Origin: an uncultured Methylomirabilota bacterium
Lineage (GTDB): Bacteria; Methylomirabilota; Methylomirabilia; Methylomirabilales; 2-02-FULL-66-22
Length of the DNA stretch: 64,000 bases
Assembly (NCBI GenBank): GCA_963845565.1
Contig: CAWJSJ010000002.1
Span: 352,001-416,000 of the forward strand
Direction: 5' to 3'
Position numbers and translations under genes: made by a program. Within the stretch, counting starts at the first letter, position 1. Every line of letters starts with the position of its first letter. Of this stretch, positions 45,620 through 54,256 are shown piece by piece. The notes below the pieces were generated by a model. It was not told the origin of the DNA, made no database searches, and saw nothing but the letters and a program-made list of their open reading frames with translations.

Positions 45620-48600
45620 ATGACCGCGTCCACGGACCCCTCCCGTCAAACCAACCGACTGATCCACGAGACCAGTCCGTATCTTCTCCAGCACGCCCAC
45701 AACCCGGTGGACTGGTATCCCTGGGGTGCGGAGGCGCTGGCGCGAGCCAAGGCCGAGAACAGACCGATTTTGCTCAGCATCGGCTATTCGGCGTGCCATT
45801 GGTGCCACGTGATGGAGCGCGAATCATTCGAGGATGAGGCCGTCGCATCCCTCATGAACCGGCACTTCGTGAACATCAAGGTGGACCGCGAAGAGCGTCC
45901 CGACCTGGACGACATTTACATGGCCGCCACGCTGGCGCTGAACCACGGACAGGGCGGCTGGCCCATGACGGTGTTCCTCACCCCGGATCAGCGGCCGTTC
46001 TTCGCGGGGACCTACTTCCCCCCGCGGGACGGATTCGGGCGGCCCGGCTTCTCGACCCTCCTCACCCAGATCGCCGATCTGTGGGATCGGCGGCGGCCCG
46101 ACCTCGTCCTGCAGGCGGAGACGCTCACCGCGCACCTCCGCGAGCGGGCCGTGTCCGTCCCGGGTGGAAACGTCGGCGAGGCGGAGATACGTGCCGCCGT
46201 GCAGGAACTGGCCGCCGGGTTCGACCCGACCTACGGGGGATTCGGGCCCGCGCCCAAGTTCCCCCCGGCCGCGCAGATCTCGCTTCTCCTCCGACACCAC
46301 CGGCGGACCGGTGACGCTGCCGCCCTGGCCATGGCGACCAAGACCCTGGATGGCATGGCCCAGGGCGGGATGTATGACCAGATCGGCGGCGGCTTTGCCC
46401 GCTACTCCACGGATGAGCGGTGGCTGGTCCCCCACTTCGAGAAGATGCTGTACGACAACGCCCTGCTCGCGAAGACCTTCCTGGAGGGCTACCAGGTCAC
46501 GGGGGGCGCCTTCTATGCCCGGATCGCCCGCGAGATCCTGGAGTACATCCTGCGGGAGATGGTCGGCCCCGAGGGCGGGTTCTATTCGGCGACCGATGCC
46601 GACTCGGAGGGCGAGGAGGGCAAGTTCTTTGTCTGGACGCCGGCCGAGGTGGAGGCGGTCCTGGGCCCCGAAGAGGGCGGCCGGCTCTGCGCCTTTTTCG
46701 ACATCACCGACGAAGGCAACTGGGAGGGCAAGAGCATCCCGCATACGCCGCGCTCCGTGGAGCGTGTCGCCGCCCGTCTCGGGGTCGCCGTGGAGGCATT
46801 CCGAAAGAGCCTGGAGGACGGCCGGGCTCGGCTGTACGAGGCCCGCCGACAGCGGGTTCCGCCCGGGTTGGACGACAAGGTCCTCACGGCCTGGAACGGG
46901 ATGATGCTGGGGGCGATGGCGGAGGGCGCGCGGGTCCTCGGTGAGTCCCGCTATCTGGCGGCCGCCGCGCGCGCGGCGGATTTTCTGTTGGCCGTACTGC
47001 GGCGGCCCGACGGCCGGCTGCTCCGGACCTATCGCGCGGGGAAGGCCCACCTGGAAGCGTATCTCGAAGACTATGCCTTCCTGGCCGAAGGCCTTGTGGA
47101 CCTGTACGAGGCGGGCGGCGACAGTCGCTACCTCCGGGACGCCACGGGCCTTGCCGAGCGAATCCTGGCGGACTTCGGGGATCGGGCGGGCGGTTTCTTC
47201 GATACAGCGCAGGACCACGAGGCGCTCATCGTCCGGCACAAGGACGGCGCCGACGGCGCCGTCCCCAGCGCCAACGCCGTGGCCGCCTCGGTGCTCGCCC
47301 GGCTGTCCTGCCACCTGGACCGAGCCGACTTCCGGGAAGCCGCCGTCGGCGCCATCCAGGCCTACGGCCGGCCCATCGGCCAGCACCCGCGGGCCTTCTG
47401 CCGGAGTCTGGCGGTCGTGGACTTTCTCTTGGAGGGTCCGGTCGAGGTGGCCCTCGTCGGGGCGCCCGGTGCGGTGGGATTCGAGGCGCTCCGCGGCGCT
47501 CTCGCCCGACAGTTTCTTCCCAACCGGATCATCGCGCACCACGACCCTGCCGGTACGCCGACACCCGACTTGCCGCTGCTGCGCGGGAAGAGCCTCGTCG
47601 ATGGGAAGGCGGCGCTCTACATCTGCCGGAACTTCGCCTGCCAGACGCCGGTGACGGATCCCGCGAACCTGGCTCCGGCGCTGGATGCTCGGACGGGCGC
47701 GGCGCCCGACCAGGCGCGGGCCGGCATCGCGGCGCGGCTGGCGGGGCGGGCCACTGCCGAACGCACGGCGGCGCGCGCGGCTCGGTTCGTCGCCGCAGGT
47801 CTCGTGCAGGGCTACGGCCCCCTCGGGAGCACCGGCCTCGCCGTCAGCCGCCTCGGTTTCGGCTGCTACCGCGTGGACGACGAGACGCCCGACCATCGCG
47901 CCGCCTTGATCCAGGCCCTCCTCGATGGCTGCAACCTCATCGACACCTCGACGAACTATATGGACGGGGAGAGCGAGCGGCTGGTGGGCTCGGTCTTCGC
48001 CGAGCTCTCCCGCGACGGCCGCGTCGCCCGGGAGGAAGTGGTGGTCGTCTCCAAGATCGGCTACGTCCAGGGCCAGAACCTCGCCCTGGCCAAGGAGCGC
48101 GAGGCGGCAGGCACCCCGTTTCCGGAAATGGTCAAGTACCTGGACGGCTGCTGGCACTGCATCCATCCGGAGTTCTTGCAGGATCAACTCGCCCGCTCGC
48201 TGGAGCGCCTGCAACTCGACAGTCTGGATGTCTGCCTGCTCCATAATCCGGAGTATTTCTTTTCGGACGCGAAGCACCGGCGGACGGGGCGGACCGACGC
48301 GTTGCGCGACGAGTTCTACCGCCGTCTCCGCGATGCCTTTGCCTTCTTCGAAACCCAGGTGGCCGCGGGGCGGATCGGCTGGTACGGTGTCTCCTCCAAC
48401 ACGGCGGGGATCCGACCGGAGGATCCGGAAGCCACCTCGCTCTCACGGATGCTGGAGGCCGCCGTGGCGGCGGGCGGCCCGGATCACCATTTCCGGGTCG
48501 TGCAGGCGCCCTTGAACCTCTTCGAATCCGGCCCGGTCCGTCAGCCGAACACCGGCCCGGAGGCGAGCCGCACGCTCTCGGCGTTGGCGGCCGAGGTGGG

Positions 48601-49276
48601 GATCGCAGTGCTCACGAACCGCCCCCTCAACGCCTACGCCGGGCAGACGCTGATTCGCCTGGCCGACGTCCCGGAGATCGAAGAGATGGGAGCCGCAGCG
48701 CCTGACGAGGCGCTGGCGCAGGTGGCCGCCCTGGAGGAAGAGTTTCGCGCCACCATCGGTTCGCGCTTGCGCGTGCCCGACGGCGGGGCCTCGCCCAACG
48801 ATTGGTTCCGCTGGGCGGATCAGCTCCGCGCCATGACCGGGCAGCTCCAGGGGCTGGACCACTGGCAGCAGGTCGAAGAACACATGATCTCGCCGGCGGT
48901 CGGCCAGCTCGTCCAGATGCTGGACCAGTCCTTGAGCGGACCGATCCAGGAAACCTGGCGGTCCTGGCTGGAGCGGTACCTCCCGGCGCTCGACCTCCTG
49001 CTCCAGGCCTTCCGCGCCCGGGCGGCTCGGCAGAGCCAGGCGATGAGCAACCGCGTGACCGCCGGGCTGAACCCGCTCCTCCCGCTCGCTCGGCGGGGCG
49101 AGTCCTTGTCCCGGAAATCGCTCTGGGTCCTGGCCAGCACCCCGGGCGTGAGCACGGTCCTCCTGGGCATGCGGCATCCCGACTACGTGTCGGACGGCAT
49201 GGAGATCCTGAAGTGGGCGCCGCTGGGGGATTCCCGAAAGATCTATGACGCGATGGCTGAGGTCCGCGCGGGCTGA
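45620..49276 (+). CDS. YyaL/SPATA20 (DUF255) protein fused to an aldo/keto reductase domain
   Basis: [36 protein letters not shown]; then LGFGCYR, IDTSTNY, VSKIG, LLHNPE. Confidence 0.9.
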
Positions 49277-49393: not shown

Positions 49394-50236
49394 ATGGCAA
49401 AGAAGGCGTTGCTCGTTGGCATCAACCGGTACAGGATCCCCGGCGCTGATCTGCGCGGCTGCGTTAACGACGTGAAGAACCTGCGGACCGTTCTCACCAC
49501 ATACTGCGGCTTCGCCGGAAAGGACATCAAGACCCTCACGGATTACGCTGCCACCACCAAGGCGATGCGGGACGCCATCGCGGCACTGGTGAAGGGCGCC
49601 AAGAAGGGGGACGTCCTGCTCTTGCACTACTCCGGCCACGGCGCCAACGTCCCCGACAAGAACGGCGACGAGGCCGACCGGCGTGACGAGATCCTCTGCC
49701 CCACCGACCTCGACTGGAAGGACCCGCTTCTCGACGATTGGCTGCGCACAACGTTTGACCGGTTGCCGGCCGGCGTGAACTTCACGGTCATCATGGACTG
49801 TTGCCACTCGGGCACCAACACCCGTGCCATCCTGCCCCCGGACGCGCCGGTCATCCCCCGCTACCTGCCAAACCCGTGGGATTTGATGGCCACGGAATCC
49901 GGCCGGAATCTCAGGGGCAAGGTGAAGGGGAGTCTGCGCCGGTCCACGCCCGCGCGCCGGAAGAAGGACATCGTAGCCGTGAACATCCCGGAGGTGCTCG
50001 TCACGGGCTGCCGCGACACGCAGACCTCGGCCGACGCGGAGATCGGCGGCTCGTTCAACGGCGCCCTCACCTACAACCTGGTCGCCGCGATCAAGGCGGC
50101 CCGCGGCAAACTCACGTATCGCGAACTCCACGCCGGCACCGTGAAACGCCTCAAGAAGGGCGGGTTCTCGCAGGTCCCCCAGCTTGAAGGCCGCGCTCCG
50201 AATCTTGATCGTCCCTTCCTGTCGCCCCTGGCGTGA
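49394..50236 (+). CDS. Metacaspase (peptidase C14, stand-alone)
   Basis: KALLVGIN, LRGCVND, HYSGHG, MDCCHSG, GALT, QVPQL. Confidence 0.93.
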   Translation: MAKKALLVGINRYRIPGADLRGCVNDVKNLRTVLTTYCGFAGKDIKTLTDYAATTKAMRDAIAALVKGAKKGDVLLLHYSGHGANVPDKNGDEADRRDEILCPTDLDWKDPLLDDWLRTTFDRLPAGVNFTVIMDCCHSGTNTRAILPPDAPVIPRYLPNPWDLMATESGRNLRGKVKGSLRRSTPARRKKDIVAVNIPEVLVTGCRDTQTSADAEIGGSFNGALTYNLVAAIKAARGKLTYRELHAGTVKRLKKGGFSQVPQLEGRAPNLDRPFLSPLA

Positions 50237-50344
50237 CGCGATCCGGCCCCCGGACGGCAGCCCGTCCGGGGGCGCCCCTGCAGGACGCCGCTCCTGGGCG
50301 TCGCATCCACGTGGCTCCGGCCACGTCTCCGCGGGAGGGCCGCC

Positions 50345-53300
50345 ATGCCGCGCATCAAGAAACCATGGACCTGTCTGTTCTACCTCTGTGGGGACAACTA
50401 CCTGGCGTCGTGCGTTGAGGACGACTTTCGGGAAATCTGTGCGGCGGGCGCCTCGCCGGACACGCATATCGCTCTCCAGCTCGACCGACCCACCGGGGCG
50501 GCCCGTTATCTGTTCCCCGAGCGGGGACAACGGCGGGCGCCGGCGCCCGACCGCACGCTGGGCAACGTCAACACCGGCGACCCGAACGCCGCCATCGACT
50601 TCCTTACCTGGGGGATGCGTGAGTGTCCGTCCACCCGCCTGGCGGTGATCCTGTCCGGTCCCGGCCTTCCCACCATGCCCGCGGAGGGCGGGGGCGCAGA
50701 CCCAACCCAGCAGGAGCTGTTCACCCTCTTCCCCGATGAGACCTCCAAGGACGCCCTGAACGCAGCCGAGCTGCGCCATCTCTTCCAGGAATCCCTTCGG
50801 CGCGCCCGGCGGAAGCGGGTGGACGTCGTCGGCCTGGATTCTTGCTCCCACGCCTTCTTGGAGGTGGCCTACCAGCTCGAAGGCCTGGCCGACGTCCTGG
50901 TGGCGTCGCAGACCTTCCTTCCCGGCGAGGGGTGGCCGTACCAGCGCCTCTTGAATGCCTGGCGGCGGCGGCATCCCACCGACGCCGAGAGCCTGGCGCG
51001 GCTCCTGGTCTCCGAAACGATCGCCGCCTACCGGCAGCAAAAGGCTCCGCCACGGATCGCCCTCTCGGCCATCAACCTGCGGGCACTGGACCAGGTGGCC
51101 CGCTCCCTGGATACCCTCACGCTGGGGATGATGCAGTGTCTGGGCGACAAGGCGGTCCTCGGCGCGCTGCAGGACACGCGCCGGCAGTCCCAGGGGATCG
51201 AGCAGCCCCACAACGTGGACCTGATCGAGATCCTCACGCTGGCCGAGCGGATGCTCCGCCGCCGGCACGCCAGGGCCTCCAACGCCTTCGGCGAGAAGGC
51301 ACGGGCGGCCGCCCTGGCGGACCTCATTACCCGGACGCTCGCGGTGATCCGGGGCGAGGGGGGCGGCCCGCCGCTCGTCCTGGCCAACGAATCGCTGACA
51401 GAACAGCCACTTCATGGGGTCTCGATCCATTTCGCCAAGAACCTGGCCGGGTCGAACTACCTCGACCTTCGGTTCGCGCGCAAGGTCCACTGGGCCGCGC
51501 TCCTCGGCGGGATGAATCTGATCGAGGATCACCCCCGGGCCCTGTGGCGGCTGGTGAGCGCCCTCATGGCGGACACCGGCGGCGCCACCCGACAGGAGTT
51601 GATCGGCCTGATGCTGGGGCCGGATTCCGTCATGGAGAGCCTGAAGACGCAGTTTCGTGCCCTGGAGTCCCCGCCCTGCTTCACCCTCTCCCTGGAGCGG
51701 CGCGACGATCTGGTCCAGGCCGAGGCCGCACCCGCACGCGTGGAGGCCCAACGCCTGTACCGGCTGCGCCTGGAAGGAACAGACGCCGGCGCGACCGTTG
51801 CCGAGAGCACCTGCCGCGTGAACCAGCGCACCTTTGACACGGTCCTCTCCCGGCTGGAACGCGTCCTGAACGACCCCACCGCCGACGCGGAGGCCCTCCC
51901 GCAGATCGTGTCCCTCGGACGAACCCTCTGGGAAGACCTCATGTCCGATGTGGGGGCGCGGCTCCATACCGCCGCGGCCCCGGTACCCTTGTGCGAGGCC
52001 GGGGAGTCCGACGAGGCGGCGGGAGATCACAGCGCGCCGCACCTTCGCCTCCAGATCGCGGCGGAACTGATGCGCCACCCGTGGGAGCTGTTGCATGACG
52101 GGGAGGAGCTGCTCGGGCTCCGCTACGCCCTGGGCCGCCAGGTGTTCATGAACGCACCGACCCTGCGGCAGGCGCGGCGTCGGACGGCGCCGGCGATTCG
52201 CGTCCTGGTCATCGGCGACCCCGCCTTTTCCCCCGCCTTCCTGGATGACCTCCGCCGCCAGAAGCGGCCGGTCCCCCCACAGCTCCCCGCGGCGCGCGCC
52301 GAGGCCCAGCGAGTCGTCCAAGAGTTCGAGCGACTGCGGGATGAATTGGCCGGCCTCCCGCCGCTGCAGGTCGAGGCGGTGGTGGGCGAAGCCCTCAGCG
52401 TGACCGAGATGCGCGAGCGGTTACGCGACGGCTATCACATCATCCACTTCGCCGGCCACGGCGTCTTCCGGAGGGGCGACCCCGAGACGAGCGCCTGGCT
52501 GCTCTCCGACGGGGAGCTCTGGGCGCGAGAGATCCGGAACACCTTGGCAGGACTGGAGGAGCCGCCCTGGCTCATCTTCGCCAACGCCTGCGAGGCCGGG
52601 ATGGACGCCGGGACGCCGGCCAGCCGCTACCAGGGGGACGTCTTCGGCCTGGCCACCGCCTGCATCAACCAGGGCGTGGCGGCGTATATCGCTCCACTCT
52701 GGCCGGTGCAGGATGTCTTGGCGGCCGACCTCGCCGCCGAGTTCTACCGGGAGCTGGTCTTGTATCGCACCAGCGTCGGGGAGGCGTTGCGCCGGGCGAA
52801 GGTCCGTGCTCGCGGGGGCAAGAGTGGCGGAGATGCTCGGCAGCTCACCTGGGCCAGTTTCGTCCTCTACGGGGATCCGACCCAGCAGCTGCTGCGAAGC
52901 CTGTGGTCGGGGTCCGCCCAGCCGGCCAAGCCGACACAGGCGGCGCCCGCCTCCCGGACCTCGGAAGAGCAGGTCCGGGCATTGGTGGCGGGCCCGGGGA
53001 TGCGGAGCCTGCGGACCGATGGGACGCGCGGTGCGCCCGGCCTCCCGGCGGGCGAGGTGGCTCTGCAGTTGGTCGAAAAGAACGGGGTGCGCTTCTGGCA
53101 GGCCCTCTCGGGCGACGAGGTGCGCCCGCTCGGGATCGGGGCCAAGCTATCCGACGGGGCAGCCGCAGGAGACCGCGGTCTCCTGGATGTCCTTCGCGTC
53201 GTGGGAACCTGGGCCGTGGGAACGGTCACCGGAAGAACGCAGAGCCTGATCACCGCCCTGGCCCGACAGTACGATCAGGACACCGTCCCCGAGCAGCGTC

Positions 53301-54256
53301 TCCTCCGGATCGGCTCCGACCGCAAGGGCGCGCCGCTCGGACCCCCGCCGTGGTCGTGGCTCCAGGGCGCCGCGCAGCCGGGCCAGACGGATCGAGTCCT
53401 GCTCTTCATCCACGGCACCTTCAGCCAGACCAGCGTCCCGGTGGCCGACTTCTCGCCGGGATTCCTGGCCTGGGCCGGCCGCACCTACCGCGCCGTCCTT
53501 GGTTTCGACCACTGGACGTTGTCGCTCGCCCCGGAGGACAACGCCACGCTCCTCTGGAACCTTCTCGATCCCGCCCTGCGCGCCGGGCATCGCCTGGACA
53601 TCATCACCCACAGCCGGGGCGGCCTGGTGGCCCGCGCCTTCGTGGAGCTGCTGGACCATGGCGAGGCGGTCCGCCGCGTGATCTTCGTCGGCACGCCCAA
53701 TGCGGGCACCAATCTGGCCAACCCGAAGAGCTGGGGCGCGGCGGCGGACATCCTCATCAATCTTGCCCCCATCAGCGCCCCGTTCGCCAAGCTGAGCGGC
53801 CTCTTGGCGCGGCTTCTCATCACCAAGGCCGAGGGCCGCATCCCCGGCCTCCAGGCGCAGAACCCCAGCGCCGTGGGGCCCGACGACTTCCTCGGTCGCA
53901 TCCAGGGGCCGACGACACTGCCCCAGGGAGTGAGCTACGGCGCCGTCGCCGCCAGCTTCGAGCCCGAGCCGGGCGGCTTCGACCCCAAGCATCTTCTGGC
54001 GCAGGCGGGCGACGCGGGCGCGGATGCGTTCTACGGGCACCCCAACGACCTGGTTGTGGACACGGGCAGCGTCTGGTCCGTGGACGCCGAGCCGGATTAC
54101 ACCCTGGACACCGCCAGCCGGGTGGTCCAGCGCGTCCTGCTCTTCAACCCCGAGGGCCGGGGGGTGGGCCAGGTGGTCCGGAAACGCGGCGTCCACCACA
54201 ACAATCTCTTCGCCATGCCCGAAACCATGGCCTTCCTGCAGGCCGAGCTGGCATGA
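50345..54256 (+). CDS. Clostripain-like (C11) + CHAT + alpha/beta-hydrolase (lipase-like) fusion, 1303 aa
   Basis: C11: WT..FYLCGDN, NTGDP, LDSC...LEVAYQL...ADVLVASQ...GWPY; CHAT: PWELL, HFAGHG, FANAC, FVLYGDP; hydrolase: FIHGTFS, THSRGG, GTPNAGT, NDLVV, HHN. Confidence 0.85.
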   Translation: MPRIKKPWTCLFYLCGDNYLASCVEDDFREICAAGASPDTHIALQLDRPTGAARYLFPERGQRRAPAPDRTLGNVNTGDPNAAIDFLTWGMRECPSTRLAVILSGPGLPTMPAEGGGADPTQQELFTLFPDETSKDALNAAELRHLFQESLRRARRKRVDVVGLDSCSHAFLEVAYQLEGLADVLVASQTFLPGEGWPYQRLLNAWRRRHPTDAESLARLLVSETIAAYRQQKAPPRIALSAINLRALDQVARSLDTLTLGMMQCLGDKAVLGALQDTRRQSQGIEQPHNVDLIEILTLAERMLRRRHARASNAFGEKARAAALADLITRTLAVIRGEGGGPPLVLANESLTEQPLHGVSIHFAKNLAGSNYLDLRFARKVHWAALLGGMNLIEDHPRALWRLVSALMADTGGATRQELIGLMLGPDSVMESLKTQFRALESPPCFTLSLERRDDLVQAEAAPARVEAQRLYRLRLEGTDAGATVAESTCRVNQRTFDTVLSRLERVLNDPTADAEALPQIVSLGRTLWEDLMSDVGARLHTAAAPVPLCEAGESDEAAGDHSAPHLRLQIAAELMRHPWELLHDGEELLGLRYALGRQVFMNAPTLRQARRRTAPAIRVLVIGDPAFSPAFLDDLRRQKRPVPPQLPAARAEAQRVVQEFERLRDELAGLPPLQVEAVVGEALSVTEMRERLRDGYHIIHFAGHGVFRRGDPETSAWLLSDGELWAREIRNTLAGLEEPPWLIFANACEAGMDAGTPASRYQGDVFGLATACINQGVAAYIAPLWPVQDVLAADLAAEFYRELVLYRTSVGEALRRAKVRARGGKSGGDARQLTWASFVLYGDPTQQLLRSLWSGSAQPAKPTQAAPASRTSEEQVRALVAGPGMRSLRTDGTRGAPGLPAGEVALQLVEKNGVRFWQALSGDEVRPLGIGAKLSDGAAAGDRGLLDVLRVVGTWAVGTVTGRTQSLITALARQYDQDTVPEQRLLRIGSDRKGAPLGPPPWSWLQGAAQPGQTDRVLLFIHGTFSQTSVPVADFSPGFLAWAGRTYRAVLGFDHWTLSLAPEDNATLLWNLLDPALRAGHRLDIITHSRGGLVARAFVELLDHGEAVRRVIFVGTPNAGTNLANPKSWGAAADILINLAPISAPFAKLSGLLARLLITKAEGRIPGLQAQNPSAVGPDDFLGRIQGPTTLPQGVSYGAVAASFEPEPGGFDPKHLLAQAGDAGADAFYGHPNDLVVDTGSVWSVDAEPDYTLDTASRVVQRVLLFNPEGRGVGQVVRKRGVHHNNLFAMPETMAFLQAELA

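Follow-up and report, generated by a model that had tools for sequence, protein, structure and literature searches.

The window analysed here, a stretch of 64,000 nucleotides from an uncultured Methylomirabilota bacterium (contig CAWJSJ010000002.1), holds two genes on the same strand, 108 bp apart, which encode an intact metacaspase-like protein of the Peptidase_C14 family (hereafter C14) and a fusion protein of 1303 amino acids (50345-54256, forward strand) that joins a C11 (clostripain)-fold domain, a CHAT protease domain and a lipase-like hydrolase of family DUF7379. This composition, put forward in a preliminary description of the DNA, is borne out by the open reading frames (ORFs), by Pfam and by fold matches, and the GC content at third codon positions, 0.87-0.88, is of the coding type in both ORFs. 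The genome, 98.7% complete, carries one C14 gene and one CHAT gene, which together form this pair. With about as much confidence as doubt, and largely by analogy, we propose that the two genes make up a compact, cytoplasmic death or defence module gated by proteolysis. This reading combines two published logics, the activation of a C14 caspase by a CHAT protease and the cutting of a hydrolase zymogen by a caspase at two Arg/Gly sites.

The product of the small gene has PF00656 as its sole Pfam domain and no sensor domain. Its nearest solved relatives are the metacaspases AtMC4 (6w8s, 3.6e-33), Yca1, TbMCA2 and GSU0716, and it aligns with the first three across both the p20 and the p10 parts, the basic linker between them spanning residues about 144-190. 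The catalytic His82 (codon 49637) and Cys137 (codon 49802) are invariant in 16/16 aligned C14 proteins, as is an acidic DE..P.D motif, which presumably has a role in the S1 pocket. Metacaspases are Arg/Lys-specific, and cleavage after Arg or Lys is what we would predict for the window enzyme from its family and from bacterial PF00656 precedents.

At the N-terminus of the large protein the C11 fold is complete over residues 1 to about 420, with matches in Foldseek to 6n9j (E 2.7e-16, TM 0.72 on the target) and to clostripain 9cip (4e-15); an AlphaFold2 (AF2) model of residues 1-860, built on our own alignment, has a mean predicted local distance difference test score (pLDDT) of 83 and a predicted TM-score (pTM) of 0.60. 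The domain resembles the clostripain/C11 peptidases over their whole fold, the C-terminal helical part included, whereas it differs from these secreted enzymes in being cytoplasmic, fused and without the catalytic His. Alignment to 6n9j places Pro106 (codon 50660) at the His position, and among 109 relatives this column holds Pro in 45, Leu in 36, other residues in 27 and His in 1. The Cys column holds Cys in 59 and Gly in 46, and Cys167 (codon 50843) is kept in the window protein. Since the catalytic His is missing, the domain is, judged from its sequence, a dead pseudo-protease, and hence the locus encodes two potential proteases and one pseudo-protease, not the three active clan-CD proteases that had been supposed.

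The CHAT domain, which follows, has its nearest fold matches (Foldseek) in Csx29 (8eex, 7.8e-13), separase, DdvA and SAVED-CHAT (8tl0), and its dyad of His705 (codon 52457) and Cys749 (codon 52589) is present in 121/121 family proteins. The preliminary description had called the C14 and CHAT dyads intact and had named the codons of Cys137, Cys749 and Ser1090 (see below) at 49802, 52589 and 53612; all of this is correct. Directly after the CHAT Cys, a low-confidence loop (residues 750-760) carries a fairly conserved Arg, R759, within the motif 'RYQGD'. In caspases the activating cut is made at this place.

In the C-terminal part of the protein the DUF7379 match of Pfam covers residues 1019-1174, besides weak matches to the Palm_thioest and PGAP1 alpha/beta-hydrolases. 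An AF2 model of residues 855-1303, likewise from our own alignment, has a mean pLDDT of 83, a pTM of 0.86 and a core with pLDDT >90. This core matches BlEst2 (6wpy; Z 19.8, root-mean-square deviation 3.5, 237 aligned residues), a Streptomyces lipase (Z 19.2), Legionella PlaB (Z 18.5), CALB (Z about 16.7) and Tle4 (Z 15.7), and the lipase alignments begin at model residue about 127-162, that is, protein residue about 981-1016. The Ser-Asp-His triad suspected earlier is supported by its conservation in relatives, with Ser1090 kept in 98/111, Asp1235 (codon 54047) in 107/111 and the 'HH' pair His1284/1285 (codons 54194, 54197) in 105/111, and by its canonical placement in the model, where Ser1090 lies in the HSRGG elbow after a strand and His1285 before the last helices. 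By fold resemblance only, the domain is lipase- or phospholipase-like and is predicted to be a lipid esterase.

Between CHAT and this core lies what we call the pro-region. In the model it consists of a short helix and a strand, a first Arg-Gly (RG) site, a 49-residue beta module (three strands and a helix), a second RG site, and a final strand and helix. The two sites are the only RG dipeptides in residues 855-1010, and both are conserved columns in an otherwise variable linker: RG occurs within 8 residues either way of site 1 in 84/111 relatives, the remainder having mostly Arg followed by Ser, Ala or Arg, and at site 2 in 102/111. Along the whole C-terminal module the recurrence of RG peaks only at ~895 (0.83) and ~944 (0.94), in a variable insert at ~925 (0.48), and at the SRGG elbow. 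Four short segments of the model have pLDDT<50, and two of them are the sites themselves, residues 893-896 (model residues 39-42) and 941-946 (model residues 87-92), which are also the sole low-confidence loops ahead of the lipase core. RG at site 1 is absent in 10/13 relatives that lack the Ser versus 17/98 that bear it, which, in sequences that are related and not independent, is a hint of an association between the two losses. In sequence and model, then, two conserved R/G loops appear to flank a removable piece of 49 residues before the lipase-like core, and the hydrolase has the look of an effector licensed by proteolysis.

The large protein is a member of a widespread, unnamed family. 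Scoring of 8000 candidates at a cut-off of E<=1e-3 yields 132 relatives (clusters), and all three domains (PF03415, PF12770, PF24096) are found in 97 of the 120 listed clusters that the domain count covers. The names of the sources include Methylomirabilis, Verrucomicrobia, Vicinamibacterales, Blastocatellia, Deltaproteobacteria and Rhodopirellula, and by such names the groups in which it is common are Planctomycetota, Verrucomicrobiota, Acidobacteriota, Chloroflexota and Methylomirabilis-like bacteria, whose defence systems are, to our knowledge, poorly charted. One distant member of 2032 amino acids (P0117; L022:4021-10119, forward strand) has a beta-propeller-like N-terminal extension before the C11-like domain and is possibly a sensor-bearing form.

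When species-representative genomes were scanned, 562 stretches were confirmed, the best 80 of which were taken as loci. Excluded from the count were CHAT-only matches (L055-L080), matches without the N-terminal part (L029, L034, L036, L043, L047, L050) and loci truncated at the N-terminus or with too little DNA upstream (L002, L004, L006, L015, L021, L023, L024, L027, L032, L033, L039). In 17 of the 37 usable loci, from several phyla, a C14 gene is directly adjacent (tblastn, jackhmmer, Pfam), 16 times upstream and co-oriented and once downstream. All-against-all clustering of the flanking ORFs shows C14 to be the only neighbour family common to distant loci, the other clusters being shadow ORFs or local synteny, and in the other 20 loci, those with no C14 alongside, the neighbouring genes are unrelated and for the most part housekeeping genes. 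Being the only recurrent neighbour, C14 is functionally linked to the large gene, as the preliminary description had supposed.

When C14 adjacency is mapped on a quick IQ-TREE maximum-likelihood tree of the first 860 residues (33 rows), it changes 8 times among the 30 rows labelled for it, with at least 6 changes forced by well-supported branches; hence adjacency is spread over nearly all clades and is not the quirk of one. These sequence comparisons suggest that the partnership is old or recurrent, and non-obligatory. In a genome of the same order, G048, a C14 gene is adjacent too, the C14 proteins being 69% and the large proteins 45-50% identical to those of the window. Presence in 6/61 related genomes (our own included) and in 3/20 congeners is the pattern of an accessory gene. 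In the congener G015 (L085/L090/L091) a 94%-identical orthologue of the large gene is split over three reading frames by breaks close to residues 90 and 390, and is either a pseudogene or affected by assembly indels.

The hydrolase is an exchangeable add-on, which may be lost, swapped, encoded separately or replaced by a gasdermin. The closest genome-borne relative among the listed matches (L001, which is L086 in congener G010; large protein 79% and C14 87% identical) has the same upstream DUF255-aldo-keto reductase (AKR) gene as the window, and its large gene stops right after CHAT, the next ORF being a PP-loop gene; DUF7379 was not found anywhere in the metagenome-assembled genome of L001. 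Four further protein clusters of about 860-890 amino acids have the same short form without hydrolase. That relatives of 870 amino acids might be frameshifted or split fusions was considered and rejected, the L001 gene truly ending after CHAT with the PP-loop ORF next. In L038 and P0106 a DUF900 hydrolase takes the place of DUF7379, and in two Vicinamibacterales loci (L042, L044) a separate gene for a PGAP1/DUF7379-like hydrolase lies immediately upstream of C14. In L049 the opposite strand encodes a type-A C14, the subtype of the window (65% identical), followed by a protein X of 352 amino acids and by a DUF7379 hydrolase (PF24096, 3e-44) that stands alone and has RG at both aligned sites.

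In two further loci a bacterial gasdermin lies beside C14 (L054, 3400-4215, reverse strand; L048, 2660-3808, forward strand and the same strand as C14), identified by the PADLOC model bGSDM (1.9e-67 and 2.2e-62) and by PDB 7n51 (1.7e-32), and the two gasdermins share an R/G near the C-terminus. Because of these hydrolase and gasdermin sister loci, this C14 type is seen to stand repeatedly beside a death effector and a C11-CHAT protein. A search of the window's own genome for a gasdermin (PDLC02986) gave no match, the search's control having matched nowhere. Besides the gasdermin, both L054 and L048 encode a C11-CHAT protein and C14 proteins of two subtypes. A separate, widespread architecture, represented by P0161, P0187, P0226 and P0218, is a DUF7379 hydrolase that stands alone and also carries DUF7362 (and DUF7363), and some of its members keep 'RGLL' where site 2 lies.

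Features of the gene pair (window coordinates) and of protein family X (locus coordinates)
Feature	Position	Strand	Evidence or remark
Metacaspase-like C14 protease, 280 amino acids	49394..50236	+	Pfam PF00656 3e-31; PADLOC 'caspase' 1e-21
Spacer	50237..50344	+	108 bp; GC hairpin after C14 stop; GGAGGG ribosome-binding site before ATG
C11 (clostripain)-fold pseudo-protease, residues 1 to about 440	50345..51664	+	Pfam PF03415 3e-23, residues 13-268
CHAT caspase-like protease, residues 524-844	51914..52876	+	Pfam PF12770 3e-39
Pro-region, residues 855-980 (126 residues)	52907..53284	+	AF2 model, between CHAT and lipase core
Candidate cleavage site 1, Arg895-Gly896	53027..53032	+	Conserved RG in pLDDT<50 loop
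Candidate cleavage site 2, Arg944-Gly945	53174..53179	+	Conserved RG in pLDDT<50 loop
Lipase-like alpha/beta-hydrolase (DUF7379), residues about 981-1303	53285..54256, stop included	+	Pfam PF24096 3e-35
Protein X member	L054:2354-3394	-	
Protein X member	L049:3112-4170	-	
Protein X member	L046:21-881	+	
Protein X member	L044:2411-3394	+	

One of the two published logics is that of LcCaspase, which cuts the adjacent zymogen LcHydrolase at two sites with 44 residues between them, R73|G and R117|G (Evans et al., bioRxiv 2025.11.14.688446). The cuts take out an inhibitory piece of 4.7 kDa and lead to cell death, and 161 homologues share the conserved motif. As in that system, a gene for a caspase-like Cys protease adjoins a lipase-like alpha/beta-hydrolase in the window, and two conserved Arg/Gly sites, here 49 residues apart, enclose a small middle piece that can be removed. 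The window hydrolase, which has a complete core of 359 residues after site 2, is fused to the CHAT protein, whereas LcHydrolase stands alone; moreover, the protease of the LcCaspase system comes with a sensor (beta-transducin repeats, STAND), unlike the window C14 and large protein, which have no such domains.

The other logic is that of SAVED-CHAT, which cleaves and activates the PF00656 protease PCaspase in type III-B CRISPR/CBASS (Steens et al., bioRxiv 10.1101/2023.06.23.546230). Both there and here CHAT and a PF00656 protease share one gene cluster, and there a specific CHAT activates a promiscuous C14. The window differs in having no SAVED, cyclase, CRISPR, sigma factor, kinase or inhibitor gene, and in the dead C11 N-terminus and fused lipase-like effector of its large protein; Pfam finds no SAVED sensor in that protein, and the window neighbours are metabolic or regulatory. 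The absence of an NTPase or TPR sensor, which the preliminary description had pointed out, holds in Pfam, as does that of SAVED.

Taken together, the proposed mechanism would be as follows. The large protein would be an autoinhibited initiator and effector in one, with CHAT as its live, specific protease and the pseudo-C11 domain plus the following helical region as the regulatory or input part that controls CHAT. A signal would first free the CHAT domain, which would then process the C14 zymogen, as SAVED-CHAT does PCaspase, with a predicted cut in the p20-p10 linker. Active, Arg-specific C14 would in turn cut Arg895|Gly896 and Arg944|Gly945 and so remove the 49-residue inhibitory piece, and the released active lipase or phospholipase would damage the membrane. 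C14 itself might also act as an executioner, perhaps degrading other cell proteins, a role that would explain the relatives without hydrolase. What the sequences and models show directly is the architecture, the linkage of the two genes, the swapping of effectors and the conserved, exposed RG loops; the trigger, the individual cuts, the lipid that is attacked and a part in defence are all inferred from comparison.

Several observations weigh against this reading. It is drawn from comparison, and LcHydrolase and DUF7379 are likened by arrangement and R/G sites. The CHAT protease of Runella cuts after Leu (Johnson et al., bioRxiv 2021.06.07.447441). The RG sites are just as well conserved where the family gene has no C14 beside it, and therefore CHAT in cis or another protease may do the cutting; when five genomes without an adjacent C14 were searched, four had one elsewhere and G003 had none. 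The 'RGLL' at site 2 is also found in the distant stand-alone DUF7379 proteins with a DUF7362 N-terminus, and therefore site 2 could be structural. Three loci (L008, L017, L037) combine an adjacent C14 with a hydrolase that lacks the Ser, and both RG sites are missing in L017 and L037, as is site 2 in L008. PADLOC has no model that matches the large protein, nor one for the stand-alone hydrolases. The neighbourhood of the pair consists of metabolic, regulatory and housekeeping genes, and no defence island was found around it or around most related loci, where the neighbours are housekeeping genes. A complex prediction that paired the C14 alignment with that of the pro-region and hydrolase scored 0.00 and weighs neither way. 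The idea, already present in the preliminary description, that cleavage frees the lipase is upheld in part: the conserved RG loops fit a licensed effector, whereas the output need not be the hydrolase, since the closest relative does without one.

Foremost among the alternatives, and one that we think unlikely, is that CHAT itself, in cis or between copies, cuts the R/G loops, C14 being a parallel or downstream, promiscuous executioner of the PCaspase kind. The conservation of the RG sites in loci without an adjacent C14, and in G003, where no C14 was found, fits this alternative well. So does the closest relative, in which C14 and C11-CHAT are kept without any hydrolase, and C14 must hence have a role of its own; the activation of PCaspase by CHAT (bioRxiv 10.1101/2023.06.23.546230) is a published precedent. 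The residue at the sites argues the other way, since Arg at P1 suits PF00656 enzymes, whereas the Runella CHAT cuts after Leu (bioRxiv 2021.06.07.447441). Moreover, type-A C14 genes adjoin RG-bearing effectors in L049, with its stand-alone hydrolase, and in L054, with its gasdermin, which favours C14 as the protease that cuts at RG.

Less probable still, in our judgement, is a resident regulatory or remodelling system, acting in stress, development or lipid turnover, in which the hydrolase would be constitutively active and the RG loops structural. The housekeeping context, with synteny shared with a close relative, agrees with such a role, as do the lack of defence genes near the pair or the related loci searched and the retention of RGLL in distant DUF7379 proteins. 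The family's host phyla are rich in CHAT and C14 proteins, whose roles are possibly developmental. A resident system is, however, hard to reconcile with the patchy distribution within the genus (3/20 congeners), with gasdermins in sister loci and with a hydrolase domain that is swapped or lost in relatives; the loops that resemble cut sites are both disordered and conserved, and inspection by eye reveals no obvious signal peptide at either N-terminus. Finally, a cascade of three active clan-CD proteases with the C11-like domain as the input protease, to which the C11 fold, its Pfam match and the retained Cys167 might point, is barely credible given a Pro at the catalytic His position, a His there in 1/109 relatives and the change of Cys to Gly in 46.

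The proposed proteolysis-gated module also touches other known systems. Bacterial gasdermins have been found next to C14 (n=15) and CHAT (n=23) proteases, and in some of these loci there is more than one protease (Johnson et al., bioRxiv 2021.06.07.447441). The window C14 matches the 'caspase' model that PADLOC has for gasdermin systems, and in the sister loci L054 and L048 a true bGSDM accompanies this C14 type and a C11-CHAT protein; the window differs in having a hydrolase in the effector position, and the published proteases usually come with TPR, LRR, WD40 or NACHT. In type IV Thoeris the executioner is likewise a PF00656 protease, strictly Arg-specific at P1 (Rousset et al., bioRxiv 2024.10.24.620036), whereas the window has no TIR partner or nucleotide signal. 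Type III-E Craspase provides, with its TPR-CHAT protein Csx29, the best structural match of the window CHAT fold, and the window has neither TPR nor Cas7-11 nor Csx30.

The statement that the architecture is not a named system stands as far as names go: we found none for C11-CHAT-DUF7379 in Pfam, PADLOC or the literature, although the supplements of the related preprints may list it. The accessible parts of the literature on CHAT, clostripain, metacaspases and conflict systems gave no description of a C11-CHAT fusion, and a search for literature on DUF7379 returned nothing. The logic, in contrast, has been published, as CHAT activating PCaspase and as a caspase with a hydrolase zymogen. What is new is the combination of a pseudo-protease N-terminus, an effector fused to its CHAT initiator, a free metacaspase without sensor, and the interchange of lipase and gasdermin. 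If the proposed mechanism is right, a whole protease cascade of initiator, executioner and effector is held in one polypeptide and one small gene, without a nucleotide signal or NTPase sensor, and a single family with a visibly swapped effector links the activation of caspase by CHAT, the cutting of a hydrolase zymogen at R/G by caspase and the activation of gasdermin by caspase. It would also give DUF7379 a function and add a bacterial case in which a pseudo-protease serves for regulation.

A more elaborate version, which we regard as speculative and doubtful, is a four-tier cascade with no sensor, in which the C11 pseudo-protease would be the input or decoy, CHAT the initiator, the free metacaspase the executioner and the tethered pro-enzyme an effector carried by its own initiator, in a slot interchangeable between lipase-like hydrolases and gasdermin. 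The dead C11 domain, with its Arg pocket, could act as a FLIP-type pseudo-enzyme that holds the R/G loops or C14 until displaced by an invader-derived signal or protease. Should this be so, programmed death in bacteria would have a trigger of a novel type.

Upstream of the pair the window encodes a fusion of 1218 amino acids (45620-49276, forward strand) of a DUF255 thioredoxin-like/six-hairpin protein with an aldo-keto reductase. This DUF255-AKR gene is 69-79% identical in five congeners, and everything downstream of it varies; a clean two-gene indel or empty site could not be demonstrated in these congeners, the gene lying upstream in 5/5 genomes and the downstream synteny being wholly different in the 4/4 that were fetched. 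The DUF255-AKR gene and small TPR genes were considered as parts of the system and dropped, being syntenic in close relatives only. A protein family X (286-352 amino acids), which has no match in Pfam, PADLOC or the ESM Atlas, recurs beside C14 and an effector, gasdermin or hydrolase, in Vicinamibacterales loci. Concerning the spacer between the two genes, a consensus scan found no promoter or terminator in it. Directly after the C14 stop codon it contains a GC-rich hairpin of 12 bp (50245-50275) without a U tract, which is kept in two relatives (L001 and the G015 locus L085), has a fold z-score of only -1.26 and could modulate read-through into the large gene.

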